A stretch of 64,000 nt of DNA, from assembly GCA_021732785.1 (NCBI GenBank), contig JAKFUG010000017.1, positions 51,352-115,351 of the forward strand, in the 5' to 3' direction. The translations under genes and the position numbers were made by a program. The stretch is from Planctomycetaceae bacterium (lineage in GTDB: Bacteria; Planctomycetota; Planctomycetia; Planctomycetales; Planctomycetaceae). How positions within the stretch are numbered: the first letter of the stretch is position 1; every line of letters starts with the position of its first letter. Shown here piece after piece: positions 1 through 64,000 of this stretch. The notes beneath the pieces were generated by a model, which was given only the letters and a program-made list of their open reading frames with translations, was not told the DNA's origin and did not search any database.

Positions 1-166
1 GGCATGGCCCTTCAGAGTGCGATACGAAGCGGCGGCGGTCAAGCGCAACGTGAGTTTTGCCGCTGTGATGGCGACCCATCATGGATGGTTTGTAAGGTGA
101 CCGTCGGTAGGGCGACTTCCTCGACCGGATGGCCGCCGCCGTCTACATTGGTGCCGAGGTGATCCA

Positions 167-1894
167 TTGTCGGCGAAAGCCCTGCCTGTTGTGCCCCGCG
201 GGACGTCCGTCTTTCCCACCGATCGGCATGCGCGCCGGTATTGGTGCCTGATCGCCATTTTGCTGGGAATCCCGGCGGTGTTGGGAGGTTTGTGTGCCCG
301 GCAGTGGACGCCGACGCACGATGAATATTGGCATCTTCCGCTGGGGTTATCCGCGCTGCTAACCGGGGATTGTCGGGCCGATCCGATCAACCCGCCGGTG
401 GTGCGGATGTGGGCGGCATTGCCCTTGTGGATGCAAAGCGTGTCGCTGGGTGAGTTGGCCCGACCGGCGCAGGATGCGTATGCCGTGGGCGATGCGTTTC
501 AGTTGGCCCATGTCGGGAATCATCGCGAACTGTTCTTCCGCGGCCGCTTGATGCTGCTGCCGTTCGGTCTCCTCGGCGGGGTGATTGTAGTCTTATGGGC
601 CCGGCGGTGGTGGGGTGACGCCGCGGGATTGCTGGCGGCGGCATTGTGGTGCGGCTGTCCGATCTTGCTGGCTCATTCGGCGATTGTTACCCACGACATG
701 CCGGGAGCGACGGCGACCTTGCTAGTGCTTTACGTCACCATGCACTACCGCGAACGTCCGTCAATGATTGGGCCGTGGGTGGTCGGCGGCATGATCGGAT
801 TCGCGTGCCTGATGAAGTTTTCAGCGCTATCACTGTTGCTTCTCGCACCGGTGTTTTGGTGGGTGCTGCCGACATCGCGACCGGTCGGTTGGAAACAACA
901 AGTCGGGGGATTGATGCCGGGGGCGATCACCTGGCTGATCGTGCTCCATCTTGGTTACGCCCTGGATTCCCTGTTTGGACGTCCGCTCCCCGCGACATCG
1001 TGGATGCTGGCGTGGTTGCCGCGGGGATTCACGCACGGTCTCGATGCATTGGGTGCGACTTTGAAGGTGCCGCACCCGGTGTATCTCAACGGGGAATGGA
1101 GTCTCGAAGGTTTTCGCACCTATTATCTGTATGGGTTGTTGTATCAACTCCCATTGGGATTATGGGCGTGCGGGTTGATCGCCAGCGGTTTGTGGTGGCA
1201 GAGAATTCGGGATCGCACCGAATTGCGGCGCGGCATTGCCATCGGTGTGGTGATCGCGGCGATTCTGTTACCGGCCAGTCTTTCCACGAATCAACTCGGC
1301 CTGCGATATGTGATGTCGATCATTCCGCTCGGAATTCTATTTGCCGCATCCGCCGCGAGGGATTGGCAACAGGTTGGTGTGGCTCGGAAATACGCGGTCT
1401 GGATGGCGATGGCGTTGACGCTTGCCGCGCTGCGTTATCACCCGCATCACTTGTCGTACTTCAATGAACTCGCCGGAGGACCGGAGCACGGCCGCGAGCA
1501 CCTCGTGGATTCCAATCTCGACTGGGGCCAGGATTTGCACGCCCTGCGCGATTATCTCGCGGCGCATTCGTCGTCAGAGCCGTTGTCTCTGGCGTACTTT
1601 GGAACGGCGTCACCAAAGTTGCTGGGGATCGAATACGATTTTCCCGCATCACCGCAGCCGCAACCGGGGCGCTATGCCCTCAGCGCGAACTTCATTGCGG
1701 GGCGTCCGCACATGCTGCGCGATCTGGACGGCCGCGAACGGATGGTCGCACTGGATGAATTCGCCCCGTTCCGGTACTTCACCCCGAAGGCCATGATGGG
1801 GTACAGCATCGCTTACTTTGAAATCTCACCCGAAGATGTAGCACGATATCACCGCGCGCGGCAACAAGCGATGGAGCAATTCGGAGAGCCTTGA
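167..1894 (+). CDS. Polytopic membrane glycosyltransferase, GT-C fold (GT39/GT83, ArnT/PMT-like)
   Basis: 575 aa with about 10 predicted TM helices at the N-terminus and a soluble C-terminal domain. The architecture is typical of dolichyl/undecaprenyl-phosphate sugar transferases. TTG start at 167; the true start is uncertain. Confidence 0.5.
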   Translation: MSAKALPVVPRGTSVFPTDRHARRYWCLIAILLGIPAVLGGLCARQWTPTHDEYWHLPLGLSALLTGDCRADPINPPVVRMWAALPLWMQSVSLGELARPAQDAYAVGDAFQLAHVGNHRELFFRGRLMLLPFGLLGGVIVVLWARRWWGDAAGLLAAALWCGCPILLAHSAIVTHDMPGATATLLVLYVTMHYRERPSMIGPWVVGGMIGFACLMKFSALSLLLLAPVFWWVLPTSRPVGWKQQVGGLMPGAITWLIVLHLGYALDSLFGRPLPATSWMLAWLPRGFTHGLDALGATLKVPHPVYLNGEWSLEGFRTYYLYGLLYQLPLGLWACGLIASGLWWQRIRDRTELRRGIAIGVVIAAILLPASLSTNQLGLRYVMSIIPLGILFAASAARDWQQVGVARKYAVWMAMALTLAALRYHPHHLSYFNELAGGPEHGREHLVDSNLDWGQDLHALRDYLAAHSSSEPLSLAYFGTASPKLLGIEYDFPASPQPQPGRYALSANFIAGRPHMLRDLDGRERMVALDEFAPFRYFTPKAMMGYSIAYFEISPEDVARYHRARQQAMEQFGEP

Positions 1895-2001
1895 GCGGTT
1901 GCGGCGCGGGGCGCGAAACCGCACAGCGAGGTCGGTGACCGTGGTGACGCGAACGAACGTCCTGTCTGGCTCTAAACTCTCGACTCTCCGCTCTCGACGT
2001 C

Positions 2002-3177
2002 TTACAGAATCCCCGGGCCTTTCACGTCGATGCCCTTGAGCATCATCTTCAGTTCTTCGGCGTTCGGGCTGATTTCGAAAGCATCGTTGCGGCTGATGAA
2101 TTCCATCTTCAGGAAGTGGTGCAGGCTATCGTTGAACTGCTGCATCCCTTCCTGCTTGCCAATGCGGATCGCCGCCGGGAGCTTTTCGTCGCTGCCTTCC
2201 AGAATCAGTTTCCGGATCGTGCCGTTGAAAAGCATAATCTCCTGAACGGGAACGCGCTTCGGCTTGTCGACGATCGTCGCCAGCAGTTTCTGGGCGACGA
2301 TCGCTTTCATGTTGAAGCCCATCGAGCTACGGAGCGCGTTGTGCATGCTCTGCGGGAAGAGGTCGAGAATACGTCCGATGGTCGACGGCGCGGATGAAGC
2401 GTGAATCGTTCCATACACGAGGTGCCCTGTTTCGGCGGCGTGCATGGCCGTTTCGAATGTTTCGCGGTCGCGCATTTCGCCCACGAGCATGATGTCGGGG
2501 TCTTGGCGCACGGCGTGTTTCATCGCCACGTGGAAGTCGATCACATCGCAACCGAGTTCGCGCTGATTGATCAGACACTTATCGGCCGTATACACGAATT
2601 CGACAGGGTCTTCGATAGTCAGAATGTGCTTGATATAGGTGTGGTTGATGTAATCCAGCATGGATGCGATCGTCGTCGATTTGCCGGAACCGGTCACGCC
2701 GGCGAGGAGCACCATCCCCTGATCGTACACGCACAGGTCGCGCAAGATCGGCGGCAGGAACAAGCCTTCAAAGTTGGGAATGTTCCGTTCGACTTTACGG
2801 CTGACCATCCCCATCTTGCCGGTTTGAATGAAGAGGTTCACGCGGAACCGCCAGAGTTCCCCTTTGTGCTCCATCACGTGGGCATAGTCGGCCCCGCCGG
2901 TCGCGAAAAAGATTTCCTGGTTCCGCTCGTCCATCATGGGCAAGCAGATTTCTTTCATCTTCTCTTCAGTGATGGGAGGCATATCCAGCGGTTTGAGCGT
3001 GCCACGGACGCGGAGAATCGCGGGCTTGCCCACCTGCAGGTGCAAGTCCGAGCCGTTGAGTTCGATCAGCGCCTTGAACAGCTTGTTGACTTCGAGGTCG
3101 CGGAGGTTGGCGCTCCCCAGGCGAATGGAATTGAATTTGGACGCGACGGCAGAACCACCACCACTCATGAGAGACAC
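2002..3177 (-). CDS. pilT: Type IV pilus retraction ATPase PilT
   Basis: 391 aa. Walker A GVTGSGKST, Asp box and His box are present. Full-length similarity to PilT/PilU twitching-motility ATPases. Confidence 0.9.
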   Translation of the reverse strand: MSLMSGGGSAVASKFNSIRLGSANLRDLEVNKLFKALIELNGSDLHLQVGKPAILRVRGTLKPLDMPPITEEKMKEICLPMMDERNQEIFFATGGADYAHVMEHKGELWRFRVNLFIQTGKMGMVSRKVERNIPNFEGLFLPPILRDLCVYDQGMVLLAGVTGSGKSTTIASMLDYINHTYIKHILTIEDPVEFVYTADKCLINQRELGCDVIDFHVAMKHAVRQDPDIMLVGEMRDRETFETAMHAAETGHLVYGTIHASSAPSTIGRILDLFPQSMHNALRSSMGFNMKAIVAQKLLATIVDKPKRVPVQEIMLFNGTIRKLILEGSDEKLPAAIRIGKQEGMQQFNDSLHHFLKMEFISRNDAFEISPNAEELKMMLKGIDVKGPGIL

Positions 3178-3346
3178 TCCCTTGGGGAAGCACGCAAGAA
3201 AACTGCGGGAAGCCGGATCAATTCGAGACGGACACCGGGGAGCGACACGTCTCCACCAAGGCCACCATCAACGTTCATTCTAACCCAAAAGGCCGGGCGA
3301 ACGGCAAGAGGAAGCGCGCGCAATCCGTGAACGGCAGACTCTGTTT

Positions 3347-3441
3347 GAAGAGTCGGGGCGGGGGCCCCGGCCTATGGATGTAAAAATCAACCTGAAATCA
3401 TAGGTCGGGGCCCCTGCCCCGACGCCTTTGAATTCAAACGG
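3347..3441. repeat. Palindromic hairpin element, family 1 copy 1 (GTCGGGGCGGGGGCCCCGRCCTA stem, ~22 nt AT-rich loop)
   Basis: About 25-bp GC-rich inverted arms around an AT-rich loop. Near-identical copies at 13184-13280 and 16371-16462. Confidence 0.8.
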
Positions 3442-3496
3442 TCGCATCACCTGCGATCAGCATATCTATCCACACGCATTCGGCGGGAATCAGCCG

Positions 3497-4903: not shown

Positions 4904-5464
4904 GGAGTCGTCCTCTCAGGGGAAACTCGTCATGAGCACGATACTGGGGGATTGGTGGAAGAGATACGGACCCGACAAAGACGGGAGATCACTCTACAGG
5001 AGTGTAACATAGCGACGGAACGCGCCGCCATCCGGCATTCGGGGAAACTTTCGGTTGCGACTGTCGAGACACATGAAGATTGGCGGCGAAATCGTCACGC
5101 GCGGAAAGACTCGTCCGCTTCTCTGCGGGCGACAAGACCATACCGCCTCCCTCATCGCCAGTGCAGTGTTCGTATGTTCCCGTGTTTCGTCGGCCGGAAT
5201 GGTCTGGCGTCCGGTTGTCTCGAACGAAGCCTTGCGCGCATCGAAGGGACTGACGAGTTGGTCACGGTCATTTCCTTTGGGAAACCCCTCGATCCGTCCC
5301 CGCGAAGTCGGTCGGGCTTGATCAACCACGCCCCTCCCGCCGCGAGCAAACGCGCCCCGTCACTCATCATCGCACAACCGGATCGGTGGCCCGTGTCAGT
5401 CTGCGAATGATTGCGGGCGAGACACACAGGGTAGGGAACCGTATCGTATGTCTGGAGGTTGTTC

Positions 5465-6193: not shown

Positions 6194-6591
6194 AGGCGAA
6201 CGGGTGCATGCGGTAATTGGATGGGAGCATCCACGAACTATTCCGGACTCCGGAGCCCCAACGGGGTGACATTCGATAGCCCAGCCCGCAGGTCTTCCGG
6301 AGGGCTGGGTTTGCGATCGCACGGCACGGGCAGCCCCACCGGGGCGCGACTCTTTCCGGATTATCCCGTCGCGCCCCGTTGGGGCTTGGCAAGGTGCTTC
6401 GATCCGTTGACCCAGGGCTGCGCGAAGACGCTGCGCCGCTGGGCTATCGAATCACGCCCCCTTTGGGGCTGAAGGCCGACCTGTCCGCCAACCGACCGCT
6501 GCGATTCCGATCCTTGCCCGGCGGAAATCGATTGTCGGAACATGCTCGTCGACGCTGCCACGCTGCTGAAGTACGACCTGCCGGACGGGTT

Positions 6592-6981
6592 CTAGCCGTT
6601 GAATCGTCGGGCGAACCATTCCCCCAGCACGACGGCCGCGAGACCCCCTGCAAAATTCGCCACGGCGTGAAACCCGCCCCACAGGAAAGCGGGGGGTTGA
6701 CGAGCAAGAGCGACCGTTTCCAGCGACAACGCCGAAAACGTGGTCAGGCCACCGAGGACACCCGTGACGAGAAACAGCCGTGCATTCACGGACAGCCATT
6801 GATGTTCGGATCCGGAACCGGCGAGATAACCAATCGCCAGGCAACCGCCGATGTTGACGATCAGCGTGCCGAGCATGGGATAGTGTGGACACCACACGGC
6901 CGCCTCGCGCGCGACGACATACCGCGCCATGGCCCCGAGTGCGCCACCGAATCCAACCATCATCAGCGACCACGCATTCAT
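6592..6981 (-). CDS. crcB: Fluoride ion channel CrcB/Fluc
   Basis: 129 aa with 4 TM helices and the conserved GxLGGxTTFS motif (GVLGGLTTFSALS). Confidence 0.85.
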   Translation of the reverse strand: MNAWSLMMVGFGGALGAMARYVVAREAAVWCPHYPMLGTLIVNIGGCLAIGYLAGSGSEHQWLSVNARLFLVTGVLGGLTTFSALSLETVALARQPPAFLWGGFHAVANFAGGLAAVVLGEWFARRFNG

Positions 6982-7089
6982 AAGGGCTCACTCCGGATGG
7001 CTGACGTGGAAAGAGGAATGTTGTTCGTCGAGTTTACAAATTCCTATCGGTTCAAGCCCTCAGTGGATCGTCTTCGGTTCGGCTCGACT

Positions 7090-8728: not shown

Positions 8729-8886
8729 CCCTGATTTCCTGAAGATTCTCCATGGCATGGTAGACGGTGTGGGAGATCGCGACAACGCCTGTTTTCTGCG
8801 GACGTTGGTTCGCGGAGTGGTGGACCCGGTTGCGGTTGCCGGAACCGTCGGGCACGGCGATCGAAGTTTCATCCCGAAGGGATGTC

Positions 8887-8934
8887 AGCCATTAGCCGGT
8901 AGTTGAGCGCAGCGACACCACCGGTTAATGGCTC
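8887..8934. repeat. Hairpin element, family 4 (AGCCATTAGCCGGTGGTTGAGCGCAGCGACACCACCGG core)
   Basis: Stem-loop flanked by short CATCCCGAAGGGATG-type hairpins. Related copies at 47316-47352 and 47412-47450. Confidence 0.6.
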
Positions 8935-9519
8935 TGATCCCTCTCGGGAGCAAATGCGAAGAATGAATGCCTACGATGCGTTGAAATCGCGGCTTCAAAA
9001 CGAAAAAGCCCGGAAGCAACGGGGTCCCAGGGGGGCTGAGGACCTGCATCGCTTCCGGGCGTTCGGATCATAGGGTGATCTTGCCCAGACAAAGGGAGCG
9101 AGCGCATCCTTGCGCAGCTCCCCGCGTCCTGTCCCGTTCGAGCGACGTCGTGGCGCATCCGTGCGACAGCGAACATCTCCCGGTGCGATATTGCCACCCG
9201 CGTGGCCGACACATCCCACCCACGAAACGAGACCGGGCGGCGGGAAAATAGGGACCAACTGAAACCCCGTCAACACCAATTCGTCCGTGCAGCGCGGATT
9301 GAAAATTTGTCCGTTCGACGGGACGAGTTTCGTGAAGCGGTGCGCGATTCGCATGGAGACCGGACGTGTTCCCACACTCTGCGTGGGAACACACGGCCCA
9401 GACGCTCCGCGTCGTCGCACTGAAGTTGGCTCGTCTGCCCTCTCAAACAGGAATCGCGACGCAGAGCGTCGCGGCCGGGCGTTCCCACGCGGAGCATGGG
9501 AACGAGGATTACGAAGGTT

Positions 9520-13067: not shown

Positions 13068-13183
13068 CGGAAAAACTCCTGCAGCGGTGCGAATGACCGT
13101 GGAAAAGGATCACCGCATCGTATCGCAGGCACATCGCTCGTTCCAGATGCGCAGCAGTGCCGAATTGATCCGGGGGCCACATT

Positions 13184-13280
13184 GAAGAGTCGGGGCGGGG
13201 GCCCCGACCTAAGATTTTAGACTGATTTTACATCCATAGGTCGGGGCCCCCGCCCCGACGTCTTTGGATTCAAACGGCCC
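13184..13280. repeat. Palindromic hairpin element, family 1 copy 2 (loop inverted relative to copy 1)
   Basis: Same stems and flanks as 3347-3441, but the loop sequence is its reverse complement. Confidence 0.8.
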
Positions 13281-13366
13281 GTACCCAGAATTGAACCGGG
13301 ATCTATGATGGGAGACAATCGTACCTTCTGTTTGTTTCACATCATCGGAACACCGAGAACGCCGCG

Positions 13367-16172: not shown

Positions 16173-16370
16173 CGAAGAGCGCTCCCGGACAAACTGACGT
16201 GATTCTCCATCCATGAGGAATCAACACCGCTTGCCATCATCCTTCATCGGGCGACAACCCGGCCGACATGCAGGCGATTTGGCAGTTTACGCAAACTTTT
16301 CCGATTTTGCTGAGATTGCGGACGACGATTCGATTCGTGATTCCCTTCCGTAGTGAGTCCGCTTCAACTT

Positions 16371-16462
16371 AAGAATGTCGGGGCGGGGGCCCCAACCTAT
16401 GATTTCCCATGGATTTTCATATATATAGGTCGGGGCCTCTGCCCCGACTCTTGAAACCGACC
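16371..16462. repeat. Palindromic hairpin element, family 1 copy 3
   Basis: GTCGGGGCGGGGGCCCCAACCTATG ... ATAGGTCGGGGCCTCTGCCCCGAC. Lies in the divergent region upstream of recQ. Confidence 0.8.
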
Positions 16463-16595
16463 CACGATCTTCACTTCCTCCCGAGAGGGCAGCCCCTGCC
16501 GGGTCTGACGATCCAACGCTGGGAACTCGCCGAAAAGTTGTGTACGGTGCCGTGAACGTTTTTCGCCCATCCCCCACGCAGGAAATTGCCCCACC

Positions 16596-18806: not shown

Positions 18807-18828
18807 TCCTTTTCGCGAAACAATCTCA

Positions 18829-18892
18829 ACAAGCCGGAAGCGCAAGCGCCCGGTTCTTTCGTAGTGACCGGGCGTTCGCGCTTCCGGCTTGT
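18829..18892. repeat. Hairpin element, family 2 (ACAAGCCSGAAGCGCRAGCGCCSGGT inverted arms)
   Basis: Sits immediately 3' of recQ. Related copies at 29530-29627, 45822-45908 and 49329-49415. Confidence 0.7.
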
Positions 18893-18993
18893 AATGGCGC
18901 TCCAGCCAATTTTTTTCTGTTCACCTCTTGACGCCGCCGCGGCCGATTGTATTATTGAGTTAATACAACACTCACCGCCGGGAGACTCGACCC

Positions 18994-19419: not shown

Positions 19420-19545
19420 ACGGTCCCTTCTCTCCCGTCCGCGGGGGAGAAGGTGGCCGATAGGCCGGATGAGGGGGCTGAATGTTTCAACACGCCCCCT
19501 CACCCTAACCCTCTCCCCCGCGGACGGGGGAGAGGGGACCGGAAG
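19420..19545. repeat. Inverted-repeat element between regulator and ABC genes (CTTCTCTCCCGTCCGCGGGGGAGAAGG / CCCTCTCCCCCGCGGACGGGGGAGAGGG)
   Basis: Two arms of about 28 bp that are reverse complements of each other, separated by about 55 bp. Confidence 0.6.
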
Positions 19546-23642: not shown

Positions 23643-23735
23643 AATCCTCTTCCACGCTTGCGCTTTGCCGGTCCCAGCGCCCGCGGCTTTTCTTCGATTA
23701 ATCGCGAACGGTGCGATCCGCAAAGCGCAAGCGTG
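23643..23735. repeat. Long imperfect palindrome 3' of DUF1501 gene (CACGCTTGCGCTTTG...CAAAGCGCAAGCGTG)
   Basis: 15-bp inverted arms about 60 bp apart. Shares the GCTTGCG motif with the hairpins at 15262-15295 and 20519-20552. Confidence 0.5.
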
Positions 23736-23744
23736 GATCGGACA

Positions 23745-24920: not shown

Positions 24921-25013
24921 CGCGTGGCCTTTTCAAGAAATAGATGCTGACGGCATATCGCGGCCAACCCCACGCCGTCAACTGGCGGGCTGCACACGGG
25001 AGAAGAAGTTTTT

Positions 25014-25240
25014 CACAGAGAACACAGAAGCACAAAAAAGTGGGCGAATGAGAGGAGGGGGAACCACGGAATACACGGAAAGGAGATAAAGAGTGAAGAT
25101 GGCGATTGCGGAGAGGGGGGACAAGCCTTTCCACTTCCGTTCCATTATTTTCCTTGCTCTCGTCTTCCTTCCGTGTCCTCCGTGTATTCCGTGGTTCTCT
25201 CTCTTCCCATCTTTTCTATGTTCTCTGTGTCTTCTGTGGA
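25014..25240. repeat. MITE-like element, family 3 (nested inverted repeats GGAACCACGGAATACACGGA..GACACGGAAG)
   Basis: Outer and inner inverted repeats with an 85-bp core. A second copy at 51205-51525 has a different core. Confidence 0.7.
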
Positions 25241-25360
25241 AAAGACCTCATCCGAACACCCTTGCTCGCGCTGCGGGCTGGTAAAGCGGTGGTTTCGCGT
25301 TCGATGTCGCAATCGGGTAGACTCTCGCCGCATGAGTTGAAGCGTGTTTCCTGATTTCTG

Positions 25361-26152: not shown

Positions 26153-26164
26153 TTGGTTACAGAC

Positions 26165-26194
26165 GTAGGGTTTGCCGAGTCCACGAGGCGAACC
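26165..26194 (+). repeat. 30-bp element family 6 copy A (GTAGGGTTTGCCGAGTCCACGAGGCGAACC)
   Basis: One of four copies in alternating orientation. Confidence 0.85.
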
Positions 26195-26220
26195 TGTTGG
26201 AGTCAAAAAAGGACACTGGA

Positions 26221-26501: not shown

Positions 26502-26531
26502 GGTTCGCCTCGCGGACTCGGCAAACCCTAC
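26502..26531 (-). repeat. 30-bp element family 6 copy B (reverse orientation)
   Basis: GGTTCGCCTCGCGGACTCGGCAAACCCTAC. One mismatch from the reverse complement of copy A. Confidence 0.85.
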
Positions 26532-26762
26532 GTGCTGCCGAAGCAGACCCTACGAATTCATTTCGCTAATCCGCGAAGTACCTGCGGAATATCGGAACAC
26601 TGCCAGCCTTGTTTGAAGTTGACGCCGTCGGTGCGAACCCAGGTCTTGCGGGGGAATTGCAGCGGTTTTCCGGTCGGTAACAAGCCCGTCGCTCTCCGGT
26701 CTGTGTGCCCTTGGCGACCCGGTGACGCAGGGCGAGGACCCGCACGCAACGGTGTAACCGAG

Positions 26763-26792
26763 TAGGGTTTGCCGAGTCCTCGTGGCGAACCG
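26763..26792 (+). repeat. 30-bp element family 6 copy C
   Basis: GTAGGGTTTGCCGAGTCCTCGTGGCGAACC. Confidence 0.85.
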
Positions 26793-27465: not shown

Positions 27466-27495
27466 GGTTCGCCTCGCAGACTCGGCAAACCCTAC
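27466..27495 (-). repeat. 30-bp element family 6 copy D (reverse orientation)
   Basis: GGTTCGCCTCGCAGACTCGGCAAACCCTAC. Lies inside the 3' end of the next gene. Confidence 0.85.
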
Positions 27496-28367
27496 GGAAC
27501 AACCGCGTTTTTCGAGGGGGCAATTGTTCGGCGCGTCCAGTGCCATTTCCGACACAGTGGGCAGCGTTCGTAGCGCAGATTCATGCCGAAATTGAATCCT
27601 GTGAACAATCCGCGGCCATACGGTTGATGGCAACTGGGGCAGATGGCGTGGCCGTAGAAAATGACGCCCAAGCGGCTGTTCCACCCGCCGAGCCCGATCA
27701 GCCACGCCAACGCTATCGTGAAACAACCGACAACCCACAGCGCCACGAGGAGCTGCGCGATGTTCTTGTCCGCTCCGAGCCAGCCGAGGTGGGCCATTCT
27801 GATCGGAAAGTTCGCACAGTAATGGGCGAGCGTAGCACTCGCAAAGCCCCATCGGAAGCCCGGACCGCAGCGCCATGCGGCCAAGACAATGGCCGTCATC
27901 CCGCTGTGAATTGCGCAGGTCATGAAGCGTTCCTGGATGAACCCGCCCAACTGATACCACGGTAGAGCCGCGATCTCGGGCTTGCGTTCCGCAATCAATC
28001 CGGCGACGGTGACCATTTCACCCAGCGCAAACCCCAATCCCAGTGCGAGCGCGACTTGCACAATGTTCTCCCGTGTGATTGATTTCCTCACGCGGGGCAA
28101 TAACAGCGGCCATAACTTTGCCGGCTCTTCAGTCAGCGGGGCGTACGCCGTCCGAAGCCAGCCCAAGGCTTCTCCGTCTCCCAGGAGCGTGACGAGCCAA
28201 CCGTCCAAGGGCATCCGGACGCCGTGAAACATCACCCAACACGTGGGCAGCGTCGCCATCAAGCACAGCGACATCCACCGCCGCTCCGTCACCGGCGTCG
28301 CGCACCACAACCACGTTCCGAACACGCCGAGGGAAACCAGCATCGCGACAAGCGTTGCGATGAGCAT
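27492..28367 (-). CDS. Polytopic membrane protein, possible PrsW/CPBP-like intramembrane protease with C-terminal zinc ribbon
   Basis: 291 aa. Candidate motifs are EExxK (TEEPAKL), an F....H region and HxxxN (HYCAN), plus a C-terminal CPSC...CPLC ribbon. The family call is tentative. Confidence 0.4.
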   Translation of the reverse strand: MLIATLVAMLVSLGVFGTWLWCATPVTERRWMSLCLMATLPTCWVMFHGVRMPLDGWLVTLLGDGEALGWLRTAYAPLTEEPAKLWPLLLPRVRKSITRENIVQVALALGLGFALGEMVTVAGLIAERKPEIAALPWYQLGGFIQERFMTCAIHSGMTAIVLAAWRCGPGFRWGFASATLAHYCANFPIRMAHLGWLGADKNIAQLLVALWVVGCFTIALAWLIGLGGWNSRLGVIFYGHAICPSCHQPYGRGLFTGFNFGMNLRYERCPLCRKWHWTRRTIAPSKNAVVP

Positions 28368-29516: not shown

Positions 29517-29529
29517 TGACCGCGATACA

Positions 29530-29627
29530 ACGAGCCCGAAGCGCCAGCGCCGGGTGTATGCGATATTTGTGATCTTCCTCGGGTCTCAAATGAGAAGGCA
29601 CCCGGCGCTCGCGCTTCGGGCTTGTAG
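29530..29627. repeat. Hairpin element, family 2 copy (between convergent nusB and cation antiporter)
   Basis: ACGAGCCCGAAGCGCCAGCGCCGGGT ... ACCCGGCGCTCGCGCTTCGGGCTTGT with a roughly 45-nt loop. Confidence 0.7.
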
Positions 29628-29666
29628 GGGTGCTGTTTTCATGGATCTGTCAACGGCATCGTAGAA

Positions 29667-43430: not shown

Positions 43431-44369
43431 CTATGCGGCTCGGGCGGGCCGTTGGGAGGTCGCGAGATAGGCAACCCGCCCGGATTGCTCGAACGTAACC
43501 GATGTGCTGCGGCGGACTTGGATGCGTAGTCCGTACGGAAGCGCCACTTCCGGTTTGAGCTGCCATTCGTCGCCGTCAATGCATTCCAGTTCGACATCCG
43601 GCGGCGAGGGCAGCGGCGGACAAAACGTCACATGCACCACGGCTTCGCGCTGACCGGAGGCGAAATGCACGCGTACGGTCCCCTCAATCGCTTCGCCGTC
43701 GGGTTCATCGCGGCGGGTCATCCACTGCGTGGTGGATTCGTCGCCGATGTCATCTTCGATGGGCGGTTCGTCTTCCAGAAGGGAGGGCGAAGCTCCCGCT
43801 GAGCCGCGGTTTGTCCCCCCGGTGTCGACGATGCCTTCGCTCGGTACCGCCTCGGTTTCCGTGGGATTCGACGACAACAGGTTCATCCACCAGTCGGTCG
43901 TTTCCAGCACCGCGACGCCGAGCACCACCGCTCCGATGGCCGCGATGCCGAGCAGTGCTCCCGATTGAGCGGGGGTTGCCGAAGCGGCGATCACCAGCGA
44001 AAACAACGTCGGCAGCCCCCACGCGGTCAGTTCGGGCAGCCATTTGATGATTGGCCAGACGTGTGCCACTGGCTCTGCCAGTGCTGATTTCAGGGATTGA
44101 GAAAGGGGTTGCTCACTGGGGAGGACACTGGCAGAGCCAGTGGCAGACGTGCGTCGCTGACAGGTTCGAGGCTGATCGCGACGGAACAACCATAACGCCA
44201 CAACGGACACTGTCACTGCGAGAATCACCGCGATGCTCAGCGCCGCCGTCGGCAGTGTCCCGGTGTAGGCCCCGGCCAACCGTCGCGAGGCGACCACCGC
44301 GGTACACAACACCAGCGCGGTCCACAGGCCGAGGGCCGCCGAGCGACTGTTGAGCGATTTTCCGTCCAT
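43431..44369 (-). CDS. Hypothetical polytopic membrane protein
   Basis: 312 aa with several TM helices. Last gene of the ECF-sigma-led gene string. Confidence 0.4.
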   Translation of the reverse strand: MDGKSLNSRSAALGLWTALVLCTAVVASRRLAGAYTGTLPTAALSIAVILAVTVSVVALWLFRRDQPRTCQRRTSATGSASVLPSEQPLSQSLKSALAEPVAHVWPIIKWLPELTAWGLPTLFSLVIAASATPAQSGALLGIAAIGAVVLGVAVLETTDWWMNLLSSNPTETEAVPSEGIVDTGGTNRGSAGASPSLLEDEPPIEDDIGDESTTQWMTRRDEPDGEAIEGTVRVHFASGQREAVVHVTFCPPLPSPPDVELECIDGDEWQLKPEVALPYGLRIQVRRSTSVTFEQSGRVAYLATSQRPARAA

Positions 44370-44497
44370 GATCCTGCTCCCTGAACCGGGAGTGATACCG
44401 TAATTGGCGGTTGGCGCACAGCAGAATTTTGCGCGGGAAACGAAGAGACCCAGGGATCGGAATCCCTGGGCTTCTGCGGATCTCGTGCTGTCGGGGG

Positions 44498-45757: not shown

Positions 45758-45821
45758 TCCTCAAAAAGGTTTCACTTCCACGACGATCCTTCGTCGCAGG
45801 TGATTTCACAGATCATTTTTA

Positions 45822-45908
45822 ACAAGCCCGAAGCGCGAGCGCCGGGTTCTTCTTCGTTCGTTATTCGAGATCAATGCGAAAAACCCGGCGCTGGCGTTTC
45901 GGGCTTGT
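45822..45908. repeat. Hairpin element, family 2 copy (inside the sigma / anti-sigma / PDZ gene string)
   Basis: ACAAGCCCGAAGCGCGAGCGCCGGGT ... ACCCGGCGCTGGCGTTTCGGGCTTGT. Confidence 0.7.
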
Positions 45909-45915
45909 GAGACGC

Positions 45916-48119: not shown

Positions 48120-48133
48120 GGGAAAGCTTTCAA

Positions 48134-48273
48134 GGAGTCGAGAGCGGAGAGTCGAGAGTCAAGAGCCAAAGGGAGAGCAAGACTCACGCACAACATATCA
48201 AAGTGACCACGACGTAATTCCGAACGAGCCGACTTATCTGGCTCTCGACTCTCGACTCTCCGCTCTCGACTCC
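48134..48273. repeat. MITE-like element, family 5 copy A (34-bp inverted arms built from GAGTCGAGA tandem sub-repeats)
   Basis: GGAGTCGAGAGCGGAGAGTCGAGAGTCAAGAGCC ... GGCTCTCGACTCTCGACTCTCCGCTCTCGACTCC with a 72-bp spacer. Confidence 0.75.
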
Positions 48274-49317
48274 CTACACCAGCGGCGTCTTGTGGGCTTC
48301 GCCGGGGATTTCGCGGACGTATTGCGGCACGGCATAGCCCGGCAGGCGCTTGCGTAGTTCGGTCATCAGAGTGCGACCGGTTTCCTCGGGGACTTCAAAA
48401 TGCGCGGTGCCGTTCACGCGGTCGAGCTGATGCAGATAGTACGGCATGACCCCGAGATCGATCAGCCGTTCGCACAGCTCCACCAGCGCGGTCACCGAAT
48501 CGTTCACGCCGCGTAAGAGCACCGTCTGGTTGAGCGTGGTGATCCCGGAGCGAACGAGTAGCCGGACGACATCGGCACAATCGCCGGTCAATTCCCGGGC
48601 ATGATTCGCATGGATCACCATCCACGGCGTGAGCCGCGATTCGGACAGCCGTTCGATGAACGACGGGGTGATCCGTTCAGGCAACACAATCGGCAACCGC
48701 GTGTGAATGCGCAGCCGACGCAAATGGGGAATGGTTTCCAGTTGTTCGATGAGCGCGAACAGCCGGGCATCGGTCAATGCGAGGGGATCACCGCCGCTGA
48801 GCAGCACTTCGTGAATGGAATCATCGGCGGCGAGCGCGTCGAGCGCCGGTTGCCAGTCGTCCAACTGTCGCGGCGATTCGGCATAGGGATAATGCCGGCG
48901 GAAGCAGTAACGGCAATGGACCGCGCACACGCCGGTGGTGATCAGCAACGCGCGGCCGTTGTACTTCTTCAACAGCCCCGGCGCGATTTGCGCGGCATCA
49001 TCCCCGACGGCATCCACGCTGTAACCCGGCGGCGATTCCGCTTCGACATCCAGCGGCAGCACCTGCCGCAGTAACGGATCGTGTGCGTCCTCCGGCGTCA
49101 TTCGTGCGAGGTAACTTTCCGGCACCAGTAACGGAAATAACTTCGCCCCGCGCTGAGCCGAGGGCAACCATTCGCGCGGCAAAGACAGGCGTTCCAGCAA
49201 CACCGCGGGATCACGCACGGCATTCGCCAGCGCCTGCTGCCAGGCGGCGCGATGGATCGGTGCGGAAAGGGGGGACAACATCGTCATGAGACGATTGTCC
49301 CCGGAAAGCATGCACAA
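48274..49317 (-). CDS. Lysine 2,3-aminomutase family radical SAM protein (EpmB/KamA-like)
   Basis: CxxxCxxC radical SAM motif CAVHCRYCFRR. GGDPL. Length about 347 aa fits EpmB. Confidence 0.7.
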   Translation of the reverse strand: MCMLSGDNRLMTMLSPLSAPIHRAAWQQALANAVRDPAVLLERLSLPREWLPSAQRGAKLFPLLVPESYLARMTPEDAHDPLLRQVLPLDVEAESPPGYSVDAVGDDAAQIAPGLLKKYNGRALLITTGVCAVHCRYCFRRHYPYAESPRQLDDWQPALDALAADDSIHEVLLSGGDPLALTDARLFALIEQLETIPHLRRLRIHTRLPIVLPERITPSFIERLSESRLTPWMVIHANHARELTGDCADVVRLLVRSGITTLNQTVLLRGVNDSVTALVELCERLIDLGVMPYYLHQLDRVNGTAHFEVPEETGRTLMTELRKRLPGYAVPQYVREIPGEAHKTPLV

Positions 49318-49328
49318 AAAAAGGCCCC

Positions 49329-49415
49329 TACAAGCCCGAAGCGCGAGCGCCGGGTTCTCTTTATCATGCCGTAAAGCAAAATTCGAAGAACCCGGCGCTC
49401 GCGCTGCGGGCTTGT
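49329..49415. repeat. Hairpin element, family 2 copy (divergent intergenic region)
   Basis: ACAAGCCCGAAGCGCGAGCGCCGGGT ... ACCCGGCGCTCGCGCTGCGGGCTTGT. Confidence 0.7.
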
Positions 49416-49563
49416 GAATGCGGTTTTCCCCCTACAAGGGCGAATTTTCTCGACTTTTTCTCTGCGATTCCGCTATGCTCGCCGAATCAACCACTTTCGA
49501 TGCGTTGCTGTCCGCAAAGTTCCGCATCGCTGGTCCCCGCACCTCTCTGAAAAGGCGGCAACG

Positions 49564-51204: not shown

Positions 51205-51525
51205 TTCATGTGGTGGAAATAAGAGAGGAACCACGGAATACACGGAGGACACGGAAGAATACCGGAATGAAAAGTCAGAGGGCGGAGCGACTGACACGCA
51301 TTCCAGGAGTCATCCGTGCGTTTTGAAACGTGCCGCTCATCACGCGGAGCGTGATGGCCACCATGGTAGCCATCACGCTCCGCGTGATGAGCGGATCCCA
51401 CACAACGCGCTGTTCATTGTTAGGATCAGTATGACACGATCTCCGCCGGACCGAGATTTCTTGATCCTGATCTTTTCCAATTCCGTGTCTTCCGTGGTTC
51501 GCTCCGTTTTTCTGTTCTGTGGTTG
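51205..51525. repeat. MITE-like element, family 3 copy 2 with nested 64-bp near-perfect palindrome (51333-51394)
   Basis: Terminal inverted repeats GGAACCACGGAATACACGGAGGACACGGAAG / ATTCCGTGTCTTCCGTGGTTC. Inner palindrome CGCTCATCACGCGGAGCGTGATGGC...GCCATCACGCTCCGCGTGATGAGCG. Confidence 0.7.
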
Positions 51526-51592
51526 CGAACTCCCCGCACGGCGGCGACACTGCGGATTCGAGTTCATTCCAATCAGGCACGAGGAAACGCAG

Positions 51593-52524: not shown

Positions 52525-52767
52525 ATGTCCCGTGTGGAACAACTCCTGGAGGCCAGTCGCCAACTCCGGCCTGACGAACGGCTCACGCTGGCGGAAGCCC
52601 TCTGGGAGTTAGTCACTGCCGATGATGATGCTGGAGAGTTGCAACTCAGCACAGAACAACGCGCCGAGTTGGATCAGCGATGGGAACGCTTTCAAGCGCA
52701 CCCCGAATCAGCCGTGAATTGGGCGGACGGTCTTGCAAAACTTGCTGTCTTGCGGTCCAAGAGATGA
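52525..52767 (+). CDS. Addiction-module antitoxin (TIGR02574-like component)
   Basis: 80 aa acidic protein. Its stop overlaps the toxin start (ATGA). Confidence 0.55.
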   Translation: MSRVEQLLEASRQLRPDERLTLAEALWELVTADDDAGELQLSTEQRAELDQRWERFQAHPESAVNWADGLAKLAVLRSKR

Positions 52768-53046
52768 GTGTCCCGCACCGGTTTCTTCCGGAATTCTTCG
52801 CCGATGTGGAAGAAGCGGTCGCATGGTATGACTCTCAGGAACCTGCCGCCGCCGATCGGTTTCATCTCCTGATTTCAACCACGCTGGACCGTCTGATCGC
52901 TTCGCCGCAGTCGAACCCCCATTGTGGATCACATCACGCGAGTCGCCGTGATGGGCGATTTCCCGTACGGAATCTATTTTCGGACAGTTGAAGATGAAAT
53001 CGTTATCGTCGGGCTTTGGCATTTGAGCCGAAAGCCGGGCCTGTAG
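52764..53046 (+). pseudogene. RelE/ParE-family toxin gene, frameshifted
   Basis: The N-terminal part reads in one frame, MSVPHRFLPEFFADVEEAVAWY.... The conserved C-terminus VMGDFPYGIYFRTVEDEIVIVGLWHLSRKPGL is in another frame. The switch is near the C5 run at 52916-52920. Confidence 0.55.
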
Positions 53047-57311: not shown

Positions 57312-57421
57312 ACTGAACTCATACCAGCCCGTGGATGTATTCGCTTTCGTGTGCCACGGCCGTGGCTTACAATCAATTCAAGGGCGGCTAACGCTCGTCA
57401 CATTCTACAGGAGTATCGACG

Positions 57422-57793
57422 ATGCGAACCCATTGTTTGATCGCGGGGGCAATGGCTCTATTGTGTGTATTCTCGACGGTGGAGTCCGCCCATGCGAACG
57501 TCAACGGTAAAGCGTTCGCGGCGACGATTTACACTCTTTCGCAAACGCACTACACGAACACGTACATCTTTGCCGACGATGGCGGCGATCCGAACACCGG
57601 GCCGTTTGGCGTCATGGAGGGAGGACAAGGGAACTGGCAACAGTGGCCCCTGCAACAGCTCTCTCTCTGGTCGGCGGCCTATTCCTACGGGAACAGAACA
57701 TCGAACATTACCGGCATTCAAGTCGGCACGCGGATGTATGGTTACGGAAACAGCAGCACCGGGGGCTTGTTTCTCGTCTTGCCCTATCCGTAA
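57422..57793 (+). CDS. Small secreted protein, paralog 1 of a tandem pair
   Basis: Signal peptide. Conserved V.GK.F....YT....F.D.G....GPF....GG.G.WQ with 58063-58470. Confidence 0.5.
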   Translation: MRTHCLIAGAMALLCVFSTVESAHANVNGKAFAATIYTLSQTHYTNTYIFADDGGDPNTGPFGVMEGGQGNWQQWPLQQLSLWSAAYSYGNRTSNITGIQVGTRMYGYGNSSTGGLFLVLPYP

Positions 57794-57912
57794 TCCAAAG
57801 TGAACCGCGGTGGCTATGGCTGTCGCCACCGTCACACGCCGGTTTGATCGGCATGCCGCGGTTTGTGACTGCACGGTGATTCGAGAACCAGCAGACTCAC
57901 CTCACCGCAGCA

Positions 57913-57962
57913 TATAGCCGGCCGTGCGAATGTCGCCGATTGACGCGATTCGCCGCGGATAA
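57913..57962 (+). pseudogene. Duplicated 3'-terminal fragment of the ftsX permease gene
   Basis: GCCGTGCGAATGTCGCCGATTGACGCGATTCG is identical to 57270-57301, the end of the permease ORF. Confidence 0.6.
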
Positions 57963-58062
57963 TTGTTGCGAACCGTGGTTTTGGGTCGTTAAACTTCGGT
58001 GGGCATTTTGCCCACTCGTCTCCGTTTCCCGCTTCGCTTGTTCAACCAGAAAGGCCCGCGCT

Positions 58063-58470
58063 ATGTTCGCCCATCGATCCCTGCTGGCAATTGCCACACT
58101 CGCGGTTGTCTTGACAGTCAGTGGTTCGGCTCACGCCGACGTCAAAGGGAAGACGTTCCCTGTGAATGTCTACACCAGTTTTGCTACCAGCTTCAGCGAC
58201 AACCTCACCTTTGGCGATGGCGGCAGCCCCGCCATGGGCCCATTTACATCGCAACAGGGCGGCGCGGGAACCTGGCAGGAAACGAACATCGGCCCCCTCG
58301 CCATCTGGTCGTGCTTCTTTGTTGACGGATCGCAGTTTCGCGTCGATCTCGGCGGCCTGCAGTACGGCACGTTTCTGATTGGTACCGGCGGCAGCAATGA
58401 AGGTGATCGGTATTTGGTGATTTCCGCTCAGCCGACCGGGCGGAGTGCGGGCGGTTCCTACAAGCCGTAA
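58063..58470 (+). CDS. Small secreted protein, paralog 2 of a tandem pair
   Basis: Signal peptide MFAHRSLLAIATLAVVLTVSGSAHA. Homologous to 57422-57793. Followed by the hairpin TCACCCCTC..GAGGGGTGA. Confidence 0.5.
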   Translation: MFAHRSLLAIATLAVVLTVSGSAHADVKGKTFPVNVYTSFATSFSDNLTFGDGGSPAMGPFTSQQGGAGTWQETNIGPLAIWSCFFVDGSQFRVDLGGLQYGTFLIGTGGSNEGDRYLVISAQPTGRSAGGSYKP

Positions 58471-58529
58471 TCGCCCTGCTCTCGATTGTCGAATAATCAC
58501 CCCTCATCGACGGCGATCGAGGGGTGATT

Positions 58530-60113: not shown

Positions 60114-60116
60114 GAA

Positions 60117-60288
60117 GACAGAGTCAAGTGTCAAGAGCGGAGTGTCAAGTGCCAGAATACGACACAAGCCGAGACCTCGACAGAGATCGATTCTGTGAAG
60201 GTCACGTTCAACCGGTCAAACTCTCGGAACAGAGTTCTCAAGCATCTTTCCGGCACTTGACACTTGACCCTCAGCACTTGACCGTCTT
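60117..60288. repeat. MITE-like element, family 5 copy B (arms built from GTCAAGTG tandem sub-repeats)
   Basis: AGACAGAGTCAAGTGTCAAGAGCGGAGTGTCAAGTGCCAG ... CCGGCACTTGACACTTGACCCTCAGCACTTGACCGTCT with a roughly 95-bp spacer. Confidence 0.7.
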
Positions 60289-60348
60289 CTGCGTTTCCGC
60301 GAAAACGGAGGGGCGCTAATCGCTTTTCGCTTTCCAGGATCGCTTTCG

Positions 60349-62751: not shown

Positions 62752-62757
62752 ATCGTA

Positions 62758-63999
62758 TTAACCCAACCATTCCGGCTTGAACAGCATCATCAATCCGATG
62801 GCAAGAATCACGCTGCCGCTGATGAGCTTCAGCATGCGGCCCCCCTCTTCCTGCAGGCGATGCTTGCCGAGCGTGATGACCACCACGGCGACCATCAGCG
62901 AATCGTCGAACATGTAGGCGGCGATGTACAGCAGTAGATAAGCGTGATTCATCCACGGCGGGAGATTTTGCATCGTGAGGACGCCGGTGTACATCGCGGG
63001 GAGACCGGCGGTGCAGAGGAGTTCCACGATGTTGACGAGGACGGCGAGCACGCTGGCCCCGATGATCGCCCCAATCAGCGATTCCGCCATCACAATCTTG
63101 CGGACGCGGGCGGCGACACTCGACTTCGCCGATTCCGGGATCGACAGCGACACGCCTTTCTTGAAAGCGAAGAAATCCTTGACGTGGATCACACCGACTG
63201 TGGTGCCGAGAATGCCGAGGGCGATCTGTGCGGCTCGCACCAGTCCGATGAGATAGAAGACGTTGAGCCACGCCGTCATGAAGAGGTAGTACGCGGCACC
63301 GCTGATGAAGACGAATGATCCCGCGACGGCGAGAATCTTGCGGCGATCCTTCAGGTTCACGAGAACTGACAGCAGAAACATCAGCACCCACATCGCGCAC
63401 GGGTTAAAGCCGTCGACGAGGCCCACCATGATGGTGAACGCGGGCATGCCCCACTGCTTCCAATTGACTTCGCCGATGAACGGCAGCTTGACCACATCGG
63501 ACTGCCGAGCGGCTTCGACCACGACCTTTTCCACGGCCGTTGTTTCTTCGGGGAGCGCAAGTTTCCGCGGCGATTTGACCGCCGGAGCATCGCCGTCATC
63601 GGCCATGGGTTCGATCGCCGACGGTGGGAGGGCGACATCGTTGACTGCGGGAGGCGGAGCAGCGGCATCATCCAATGCCGGTGGCGGTGTCTCGTCTGAC
63701 AATGCCGGCGGGGGAGCATCATCGGCCCACGCCTGTCCCCACACGGACGGATAGTGGTAGCGTTGTTTGTCGTTCCGAAGCGACGCTTGCGCCGGTGGCG
63801 CGGGTGCCGGGGCTGCGGCGGGAACACAATCGAGGGTCACCGCTTTGAGCGTGTCTTCCCATTGCTTGCCGGTCGACACGATGTCGTTGAAGCCGACCTG
63901 GAATTTTCCGGCCGCATGCACCGCCGGAACGCCAGTCCCAGTGACACGATACCGCTGGGCGACTTCGTTCATGCGGGCGGAAACGCCCGCCTCCAGCAC
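62758..63999 (-). CDS. Membrane thiol-disulfide protein: thioredoxin-like periplasmic region fused to DsbD/CcdA-like transmembrane domain (5' end outside window)
   Basis: The TM region carries Cys in FNPCAMW and LCTAGLPAMY, reminiscent of the DsbD_2/CcdA core. The ORF continues past the window end. Confidence 0.45.
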   Translation of the reverse strand: MLEAGVSARMNEVAQRYRVTGTGVPAVHAAGKFQVGFNDIVSTGKQWEDTLKAVTLDCVPAAAPAPAPPAQASLRNDKQRYHYPSVWGQAWADDAPPPALSDETPPPALDDAAAPPPAVNDVALPPSAIEPMADDGDAPAVKSPRKLALPEETTAVEKVVVEAARQSDVVKLPFIGEVNWKQWGMPAFTIMVGLVDGFNPCAMWVLMFLLSVLVNLKDRRKILAVAGSFVFISGAAYYLFMTAWLNVFYLIGLVRAAQIALGILGTTVGVIHVKDFFAFKKGVSLSIPESAKSSVAARVRKIVMAESLIGAIIGASVLAVLVNIVELLCTAGLPAMYTGVLTMQNLPPWMNHAYLLLYIAAYMFDDSLMVAVVVITLGKHRLQEEGGRMLKLISGSVILAIGLMMLFKPEWLG

Positions 64000-64000
64000 G

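Follow-up and report, generated by a model that had tools for sequence, protein, structure and literature searches.

What are the short palindromes that crowd the intergenic DNA of a planctomycete genome, and do they move? The question is raised by a 64,000-nucleotide stretch of a Planctomycetaceae bacterium (GenBank assembly GCA_021732785.1, contig JAKFUG010000017.1, positions 51,352 to 115,351; hereafter the window, meaning this whole stretch), whose palindromic elements were sorted into types A to M by self-BLAST and direct-repeat families. The window probably holds a mixture of small palindromic elements, non-coding and either mobile or amplifying, of a kind typical of the Planctomycetaceae and the wider Planctomycetota. 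We regard these elements as new families of known kinds, namely repetitive extragenic palindromes (REPs) of GTAG type and their inverted doublets (REPINs) with a REP-associated tyrosine transposase (RAYT), a shell resembling a miniature transposable element with inverted repeats (MITE), untagged doublets, and an intragenic palindrome. Repeats of the Planctomycetota are little described beyond Rhodopirellula baltica, and the window offers a compact view of REP-, REPIN-, and MITE-like lineages coexisting, nesting, and replacing one another in this phylum.

Family A, its shell, and its probable transposase

The core unit of family A is a REP hairpin, (A/G)TAG-GTCGGGGC-NNNN-GCCCCGAC, with an 8-bp stem and a 4-nt loop. 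Its tag is ATAG in the window and GTAG in single units of five other loci (L113, L115, L119, L125, and L132; L numbers denote loci outside the window). The window copies and most metagenome copies are tail-to-tail doublets of this unit within an outer shell (GGTAGTGGGTCAGTTTAAAGA ... TTGAATTCAAACTGACTCACTGCC), which is ~125 nt long, non-coding, and dispersed, and has terminal inverted repeats (GGTAGTGGGTCAGTTT). A scan of metagenomes with the A arm yielded 22 stretches, of which nine come from as many contigs of a single sample. These stretches align to the window copies (A1 amongst them) over the ~100–125-nt element only, at 80–90% identity. Amongst the 12 copies with both outer repeats, the flanking 8-mers are identical at 7 or 8 of 8 positions in eight, including A2 and A3, compared with none of 132 mismatched pairs reaching 7 of 8. 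The A shell makes 8-bp target-site duplications, which is the behavior of a MITE. Doublets without the shell also exist (L116, L118/L128, and L122). At one further locus (L129, 305–440), the right outer repeat of a family A element is replaced by an F unit set directly against the REP core, a case of one family truncating or inserting into another.

The core has a transposase gene beside it in relatives. A tblastn search with a RAYT sequence matched two metagenome loci (L112 and L126) that had been fetched solely for their A arms; the tblastn searches used two queries (a RAYT and the IS608 TnpA). The two open reading frames (ORFs; L126:5016-5534 and L112:831-1427) pass the NCBIfam model NF047646 (“REP-associated tyrosine transposase”; cut-off 80 bits) with 119.5 and 101.4 bits and Pfam Y1_Tnp (cut-off 23 bits) with 34.5 and 28.3 bits, respectively, and both bear the HUH, WQ, and YxHxNP motifs. 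One lies between single A units, 7 and 13 nt off its ends, and the other between two head-to-head A doublets. Judged from sequence and gene order, this predicted RAYT with flanking A units is a classical REPtron as defined in PMC3733652, and the A core provides a concrete REP–RAYT pair open to biochemical testing.

The A core is like the REPtrons of E. coli, Pseudomonas fluorescens, and Stenotrophomonas in having a RAYT gene between its own REPs, although its doublet sits in a duplication-making shell and its RAYT link comes from relatives only. The shell, in turn, is like bacterial MITEs (Correia/NEMIS of Neisseria and Nezha of cyanobacteria) in its terminal inverted repeats, its 8-bp duplications, and its non-coding, dispersed nature, but its interior is a RAYT-type REP doublet instead of the remnants of an insertion sequence (IS). 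In our reading, family A would go back to a REPIN that a MITE had captured or become fused with before it multiplied.

Census, dispersal, and turnover of the elements

An inverted-repeat finder reports 30 pairs in the window. Our own scan (arms of at least 14 nt, at least 80% complementarity) finds 23 non-overlapping inverted repeats, compared with 2–13 in Markov shuffles (median ~4–5), and 20 of the 23 lie outside the gene set, with only ~21% of the window being intergenic (13.2 kb, from a codon-bias map of ~52 genes). The elements total ~27, of at least 12 sequence types: three copies of A, four B doublets and one half, two of C, two of D and one half, four of E, two each of I and L, and one each of F, G, H, J, K, and M. 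They cover ~2.9 kb, or 4.7% of the window as a whole and ~22% of the intergenic DNA in it, and most have minimum free energy z-scores of -7 to -15 relative to dinucleotide shuffles. The initial annotation had counted at least eight families and more than 25 intergenic insertions, with loop inversion and tandem sub-repeats as structured variation; both counts and both kinds of variation are borne out, except that one element, J, is intragenic. The spacers of A1 and A2 are mutually reverse-complementary while their outer flanks keep one orientation, and tandem sub-repeats appear as 7-nt units in the D arms and 9-nt units in the I arms. Elements also nest, with H lying inside an I-type element and C1 resembling C2 with an insert of extra inner hairpins. 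Since F and H have an ACGC-GGA-GCGT top in common, and B, M, and a hairpin at 33212 have AAGCGCAAGCG in common, the families are not fully independent.

Short hairpins recur throughout. Family E has an 8-bp stem and H a 7-bp stem with a 3-nt loop, and the B arm and the F, G, and J units likewise form short (~20–40 nt) imperfect-palindrome hairpins. GTAG-like tags are found on E, on H (GTAG/GTGG), and on the A core. All four E copies keep GTAG and, with a T·G position in the stem, solely the GTAG strand folds well. They form two widely spaced pairs, tags outward, around small ORFs, and lie at or near gene 3′ ends, 13–48 nt past stop codons or overlapping them, with no orientation bias relative to transcription. 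The bracketed ORFs encode an 84-aa protein and a zinc-ribbon/transmembrane protein; the possibility that they are RAYTs was rejected, as Pfam gives it no support. Copies of E were found at L008, L064, and L042, and as tight doublets in two other genomes, while H occurs in relatives as singles and as a 33-nt tandem array (L051, the L025 array, L055, and L058).

In these respects the window elements are similar to REP and REPIN systems, which are short G+C-rich hairpins with a GTAG-like tag (as in E, H, and the A core) that stand alone, pair up head to head or tail to tail, or cluster, lie mostly outside genes, and have several families per genome. R. baltica harbors several REP families along with many genes for tyrosine transposases (PMC3733652), and the GTAG REP super-family of Di Nocera et al. 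(2013) includes GTAG-20 and GTAG-21 of that species (PMC3733652). The window sequences nevertheless differ from the R. baltica peptide signatures in the supplement of that paper.

Family B is an untagged doublet found across the phylum. Its arm, ACN-AGCCCGAAGCGCNAGCGCCGGG, is separated from its partner by a spacer of 1–90 nt in 56 doublets of other genomes and the four of the window, and one metagenome-assembled genome (MAG) has tandem arrays of B arms. Each arm is self-foldable, and a rare CCGG/CCGG variant shows compensation at two levels, inside an arm and from one arm to the other. Arm agreement inside doublets is above expectation (0.81 vs. 0.43, and 0.63 vs. 0.37). The 56 doublets show no target-duplication signal, unlike bacterial MITEs, and B has no unpaired tag, as its ends (ACN/NGT) are paired; a GTAG flanking the arm was rejected as a tag as it is present in only 2 of 9 arms. 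Amongst the matches listed, a degenerate-arm scan of a genome collection found at least 92 stretches in ~20 Planctomycetota MAGs labeled Planctomycetaceae, Planctomycetia, Pirellulales, Gemmataceae/Gemmatales, and Phycisphaerae, with two isolated and possibly chance matches in other phyla; ~27 of the B-bearing 8-kb stretches listed were fetched from a single MAG (CAWATZ). Family B may serve as a phylum-wide marker, and its concerted evolution could be used to study the homogenization of repeats.

Ten types (A, B, D–J, and L) recur in other Planctomycetota genomes, metagenomes, or IMG/VR contigs, so the repeats are not only local duplicates, which is the outcome that the initial annotation had named as its refutation; this dispersal was seen for all but C, K, and M. 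In a BLAST search against 660 kb of B-bearing loci from relatives, E, F, G, H, D, L, and a hairpin at 44440 recur at unrelated loci of several genomes. Singles and inverted doublets of F (L007, L021, L049, L129, and L131) and of G (three copies at L078, and L018, L008, and L002) occur elsewhere. G is probably the palindrome that the initial annotation placed in the ytrA operon. The I core (AACCACGGAAKACACGGAA) is present in 13 IMG/VR stretches and the J core in two. Scans of viral contigs with the B, A, K, C, and E cores gave no matches and are uninformative. At the peptide level, searches for translated copies gave no candidates for C, and the one match for K was a repeat protein with no relation to it. 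For C, D, I, and K, the copies are too few for a count of target-site duplications.

Turnover was followed in three relatives syntenic with parts of the window between 43.4 and 62 kb, namely L135 (GCA_021733445.1), L139 (Logan assembly of SRR28423907), and L138 (GCA_964484765.1), whose EpmB proteins are 90, 87, and 84% identical to that of the window, respectively. At orthologous intergenic sites, these relatives have other families or none. The composite of I and H is found only in the window, its site holding an F-like doublet in L135 and neither element in L138 and L139, while a T-run terminator beside the gene at this site is kept in all four genomes. At the site of D3, L135 has a B doublet instead. 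In the window, D1 fills the 154-nt spacer between epmB and a DUF1877 gene. The relatives have spacers of 75 nt with a short palindrome resembling D, of 10 nt, and of 118 nt with other hairpins. The recQ neighborhood was rejected for this comparison as it is not syntenic in the 90% relative, as was L024, which has one gene in common with the window and rearranged flanks.

Two B doublets are old. The window, L135, and L138 all have B4 at the orthologous site, where L139 has unrelated sequence; its three copies differ at no fewer than four compensated arm positions and have unrelated spacers. As each copy bears the arm variant typical of the B family of its own genome, the pattern indicates either selection for pairing or homogenization and replacement by family members. 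At the B3 site, L138 has a doublet as the window does, and L139 has one arm.

Element J lies in a gene for a four-helix membrane protein (43431–44369, minus strand) whose exact 312-aa product is in the public protein collection. The DNA at the site is 120 nt in the window vs. 18 nt between conserved codons in the orthologs, a net gain of 102 nt or 34 codons, and exactly 34 residues are missing between helices 2 and 3 of the orthologs, both that of L138 (55% identity) and that of L139. J is a palindrome inserted in frame, a multiple of three in length, that leaves the reading frame open. It resembles Rickettsia palindromic elements and intragenic REPs (PMC3733652) in being an in-frame palindrome placed in a conserved protein, in a loop that joins transmembrane helices, although the phylum and sequence differ and the window has a single intragenic case.

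The initial annotation had called this repeat density unusual. With the same finder for all genomes, the window has 3.6 inverted repeats per 10 kb, compared with 3.3 and 1.9 at protein-selected loci of relatives (L135 and L094), 2.6–5.4 at repeat-selected loci of six other genomes, and 0.3–1.4 in shuffles, so that the density is ordinary for the clade. The repeat load is high by general bacterial standards. The related warning that the repeats would mislead ORF callers holds only for raw ORFs: of 170 ORFs with at least 120 aa, 28 are not genes and overlap an element, and four real genes have first-start ORFs that extend into elements, but none of nine long element-crossing first-start ORFs is in the public protein collection, and real callers are mostly not misled. 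Two errors were seen, small in extent: the J-containing gene model and a 61-aa gene without Pfam match (L094, 5158–5343, minus strand; GCA_964484765.1) called exactly over an I doublet (5175–5306). For annotation, about a fifth of the intergenic DNA of the window is repeat-derived, and one public gene model contains an in-frame element.

Mobile elements weighed against other origins

Most elements consist of units with a 7–10-bp stem and a 3–4-nt loop, arranged as singles, REPIN-like inverted doublets, or clusters. E, H, and the A core would most likely be copied by RAYTs encoded elsewhere in the genome, that is, by HUH/Y1 enzymes expected to act on single-stranded hairpins and to leave no target duplication. 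The A shell would transpose like a MITE, leaving its duplications around the enclosed REP doublet. For B, F, G, D, and I, in which neither a tag nor a duplication is recognizable, the candidate mobilizers are a class 3 TnpA-Y1 enzyme, a RAYT that acts in trans, or else recombination with gene conversion. After insertion, elements come, go, and displace one another at intergenic sites as species diverge; they can nest, flip their loops via recombination between arms, and occasionally land in frame in genes, as J has done. Old copies such as B3 and B4 are kept palindromic by compensatory change or homogenization, and an RNA or DNA hairpin role at the level of the host is possible for them. The dispersal, the hairpin anatomy, the duplications around A, the RAYT next to the A core in relatives, the site turnover, and the in-frame insertion are observations; which enzymes are at work in the source genome, and whether the host makes any use of the elements, is inferred. 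Class 3 TnpA-Y1 genes with high-copy hairpins are found mainly in Planctomycetes (PMC6006769), and the “REPtron-like” loci described there, principally from Planctomycetes and Acidobacteria, are flanked by atypical high-copy hairpins; they are candidate mobilizers for the untagged families, although a CnGA foot is not established in B, F, or G. No class 3 TnpA-Y1 gene was seen in the sampled DNA, for which no dedicated test was made.

Several observations weigh against this reading. Neither an outer A shell without a REP core nor an autonomous IS with the inverted repeats of the shell was found amongst the fetched loci, and no pair of A-shell termini surrounds a transposase, as in a parent IS, in ~1 Mb of loci. 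With the two tblastn queries, no RAYT or IS200-like ORF was found in the window, or in the ~1 Mb of fetched loci except at L112 and L126, and no window family other than the A core was found beside a RAYT in the loci fetched; the RAYT association envisaged in the initial annotation was found for the A core in two related contigs and not within the window, while its description of the repeats as REP- or MITE-like agrees with the duplications of the A shell and the RAYT link of the A core. B, F, G, D, and I lack a GTAG-type tag, and C, K, and M were not found outside the window in the 660-kb search. The 10-nt spacer of L135 is probably a deletion rather than an ancestral empty site, because a conserved ribosome-binding stretch is also gone. 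The positional conservation of B3, B4, and the 44440 hairpin across species fits function as well as selfish persistence.

The last of these observations would suit palindromes that are not mobile but regulatory or structural elements of the host, such as terminators without a T-run, stabilizers of mRNA 3′ ends, insulators, or nucleoid-protein or gyrase sites (compare the bacterial interspersed mosaic elements, BIMEs, of E. coli), alike through a common binding factor. B3, B4, and the 44440 hairpin keep their pairing at orthologous sites by compensatory changes, the E copies lie close to or over stop codons, folding z-scores are very low, and in phage-like contigs start codons have the I core directly upstream. 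We nonetheless consider this origin distinctly unlikely, as it does not explain the 8-bp duplications of the A shell, the RAYT genes between A units, or the different families, or none, that occupy the same orthologous spacer in close relatives; moreover, six elements lie between divergent genes and one is in frame within a gene, most have no T-run, and the orientation of E is unbiased. Function after insertion, especially for B, is possible. That all families are ordinary MITEs, i.e., deletion derivatives of DDE-transposase ISs with inverted repeats and duplications, is very unlikely. The A shell has both hallmarks, and D and I have long inverted arms around a non-coding center, but the 56 B doublets are without a duplication signal, B, E, F, G, and H occur as single units and tandem arrays besides doublets (the behavior of REPs and BIMEs), E, H, and the A core are tagged, the A core has a RAYT, and a parent IS is missing from the ~1 Mb of loci. 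We give almost no credence to local duplication or assembly artefacts of one MAG. The source does appear to be a draft contig, C, K, and M are seen in the window only, and a non-palindromic repeat described below (N) is a genuine local duplication; however, the other ten types recur in independent assemblies of many studies, including contigs of 1–3 Mb, and some recur at orthologous positions in the three relatives. This origin is refuted for A, B, D–J, and L, a refutation that does not cover C, K, and M.

A further reading concerns B alone and is unlikely in our judgment. B would be neither a RAYT-type REP nor a MITE but a phylum-wide structured element, spread and homogenized in a manner not yet described (such as the action of a class 3 Y1 enzyme or the conversion of one copy on the template of another) and used by the host as a bidirectional intergenic hairpin signal, with the design of A as a second route of hitch-hiking. 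It is suggested by the range of B from Planctomycetia to Phycisphaerae, the lack of a GTAG tag and of duplications, retention at orthologous sites, genome-specific variants, and compensatory changes. A population of mobile or amplifying elements remains the reading we prefer. It leaves the known picture of bacterial repeats unchanged, and its points of interest are the REP doublet within a MITE in A, the spread and pairing-preserving concerted evolution of B, and the rapid replacement of families at the same sites.

Feature list and further observations in the window

Table 1. Palindromic elements and other hairpins of the window (positions are those of the window; a dot marks features without strand).
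Feature	Position	Strand	Description
A1	3333..3450	.	Tail-to-tail doublet of the REP hairpin GTCGGGGC-NNNN-GCCCCGAC, ATAG tags inward, outer ends degenerate; z = -8.1
A2	13170..13283	.	Spacer inverted vs. A1; between divergent genes; flanking 8-mers CGAATTGA / AGAATTGA
A3	16351..16469	.	Upstream of recQ; outer inverted repeats CGTAGTGAGTCCG...CCGACCCACGATC; target-site duplication TTCCCTTC / TTCACTTC
B1	18826..18895	.	Doublet, 20 nt past recQ stop; CCGG/CCGG arm variant, compensated within and between arms
B2	29527..29628	.	Doublet between convergent nusB and Na/Ca-exchanger genes
B3	45819..45911	.	Doublet between anti-sigma and PDZ genes
B4	49327..49418	.	Doublet between divergent epmB and 524-aa gene
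B half-element	25264..25285	.	Single arm, from direct-repeat families
C1	47296..47470	.	Long nested palindrome, 38-52-nt arms; z = -14.9
C2	8866..8945	.	Compact family C hairpin
D1	48130..48278	.	Palindrome, arms of 7-nt tandem sub-repeats (GAGTCGA); fills epmB-DUF1877 spacer
D2	1950..2006	.	Single family D arm between convergent genes
D3	60115..60290	.	D-like palindrome with GTCAAGT heptads
E1	26164..26194	+	GTAG-GGTTTGCC-N10-GGCGAACC; 13 nt past methyltransferase stop codon
E2	26502..26533	-	GTAG REP, inverted orientation; brackets 84-aa ORF together with E1
E3	26761..26791	+	GTAG REP
E4	27466..27497	-	GTAG REP over stop codon of gene 27492-28367(-); with E3 brackets zinc-ribbon/transmembrane ORF
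F	9365..9506	.	Inverted doublet of two-hairpin unit (GTTCCCACGC-TCC-GCGTGGGAAC ... GACGC-TCC-GCGTC)
G	19421..19541	.	Doublet of one-hairpin unit CCCTCTCCCCCG-CGGA-CGGGGGAGAGGG; between GntR (ytrA-like) and ABC ATPase genes
H	51333..51394	.	Near-perfect tail-to-tail doublet of GTAG/GTGG-tagged REP (GTAG-CC-ATCACGC-TCC-GCGTGAT), nested in I2; z = -13.8
I1	25009..25243	.	Inverted arms of CACGGAA-type 9-nt sub-repeats
I2	51215..51535	.	I-type arms 51221-51260 and 51470-51530 around H
J	44059..44150	.	Palindrome of CACTGGC-AGA-GCCAGTG hairpins, in gene 43431-44369(-)
K	6254..6470	.	Nested palindrome between convergent PAP2 and crcB genes; outer arms Acido-Lenti-1-like two-hairpin units (sub-threshold)
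L1	39687..39773	.	Structured repeat, two hairpins within outer stem, just downstream of (-) gene
L2	40512..40599	.	Second L copy, downstream of signal peptidase gene
M	23651..23737	.	18-bp perfect outer arms, between convergent DUF1501 and BNR genes; AAGCGCAAGCG core as in B; single copy
Acido-Lenti-1 sub-threshold matches	6254-6309, 6411-6470, 8870-8899, 47439-47468	-, +, -, +	On K and C palindrome arms
Conserved terminator-type hairpin	44440..44478	-	GAAGCCCAGGG...CCCTGGGCTTC; orthologous in L138 and L139 with compensatory changes; similar hairpins at other loci
Conserved terminator hairpin	51165-51207		T-run type, separate from repeat elements
Palindrome	18947..18968	.	TTGTATTA-N6-TAATACAA, upstream of GntR gene, over likely -10 box

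The window has a G+C content of 60% (regional range 57–63%) and no tRNA genes in its 64 kb. Its proteins include Pfam domains for DUF1501, WD40, an ECF sigma/anti-sigma pair, RecQ, and EpmB, and the nearest homologues of RecQ and EpmB bear the names Planctomycetaceae, Schlesneria, or Pirellulales, which places the window in the Planctomycetaceae. The sole Rfam match at gathering in the window is a cyclic di-AMP riboswitch (RF00379; 33335–33507, minus strand; 55.7 bits, gathering 38), located upstream of a gene for a 774-aa SPFH/Band-7 domain protein (30867–33191, minus strand) and separated from it by a 14-bp perfect hairpin (33212–33254). Rfam reported no fluoride riboswitch at either threshold in the leader (6982–7089) of the fluoride channel gene crcB (6592–6981, minus strand), which is slightly unexpected.

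Below the gathering score of 37, the Rfam motif Acido-Lenti-1 (RF01687) matches the K arms and C ends at 28.8, 19.9, 20.8, and 18 bits. The two-hairpin layout with a GGCUA linker is similar, but the scores are sub-threshold and the window units form inverted pairs of a larger palindrome; the published “sRNA” motif may be related to REP-like repeat units. Over D1, G, H, A3, and C1, Rfam also gives matches with microRNA precursors of plants and animals, which are far below gathering and reflect long hairpins only. In family L, an outer stem encloses a pair of hairpins, CTGGGGCG...CGCCGCCCCAG and CTGGGTTG...CAACCCAG. Its window copies directly follow two minus-strand genes, while a similar copy (L056, 1283–1366) adjoins an unrelated gene; a known RNA motif was rejected as Rfam has no match, and L is probably non-coding since its two copies differ by indels. 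In five phage-like IMG/VR contigs (L100, L101, L102, L108, and L110), the I core, often with more CACGGAA repeats, is located 15–35 nt upstream of an ATG, and there it may be a 5′-leader or promoter-proximal signal rather than a palindrome arm.

The elements are not canonical terminators, as for most of them the 10 nt that follow contain at most four T, whichever strand is read, and six elements lie between divergent genes. The hairpins at 44440–44478 and 51165–51207, on the other hand, are ordinary conserved terminators. The palindrome at 18947–18968 is probably an operator, predicted from its position, and not a repeat family. Two further interpretations of the repeats were rejected, namely CRISPR, as the spacing is not regular, and integron attC sites, as the R′/R″ core sites are absent.

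A 43-nt direct repeat, N, is found at 57269–57311, including the stop codon of a MacB/FtsX gene, and at 57920–57962, the two copies bracketing 651 nt; it is a non-palindromic local duplication of the 3′ end of a gene and not a hairpin element. The 1.2 kb at 57312–58529 contains two ORFs (57422–57793 and 57940–58470) without Pfam match, and L135 has 83 nt here. The arrangement looks as it might after site-specific integration at the 3′ end of a gene. The lowest G+C part of the window (24000–28000; 0.569) holds the four E REPs around small ORFs without known domains, I1, and the B half-site, and this patch may have been recently acquired or rearranged. An antitoxin gene (Unstab_antitox; 52525–52767, plus strand) is followed by a ParE toxin gene in two frames (52680–52991 and 52924–53046); as the toxin is whole (98 aa) in L135, the window copy is probably a frameshifted pseudogene.

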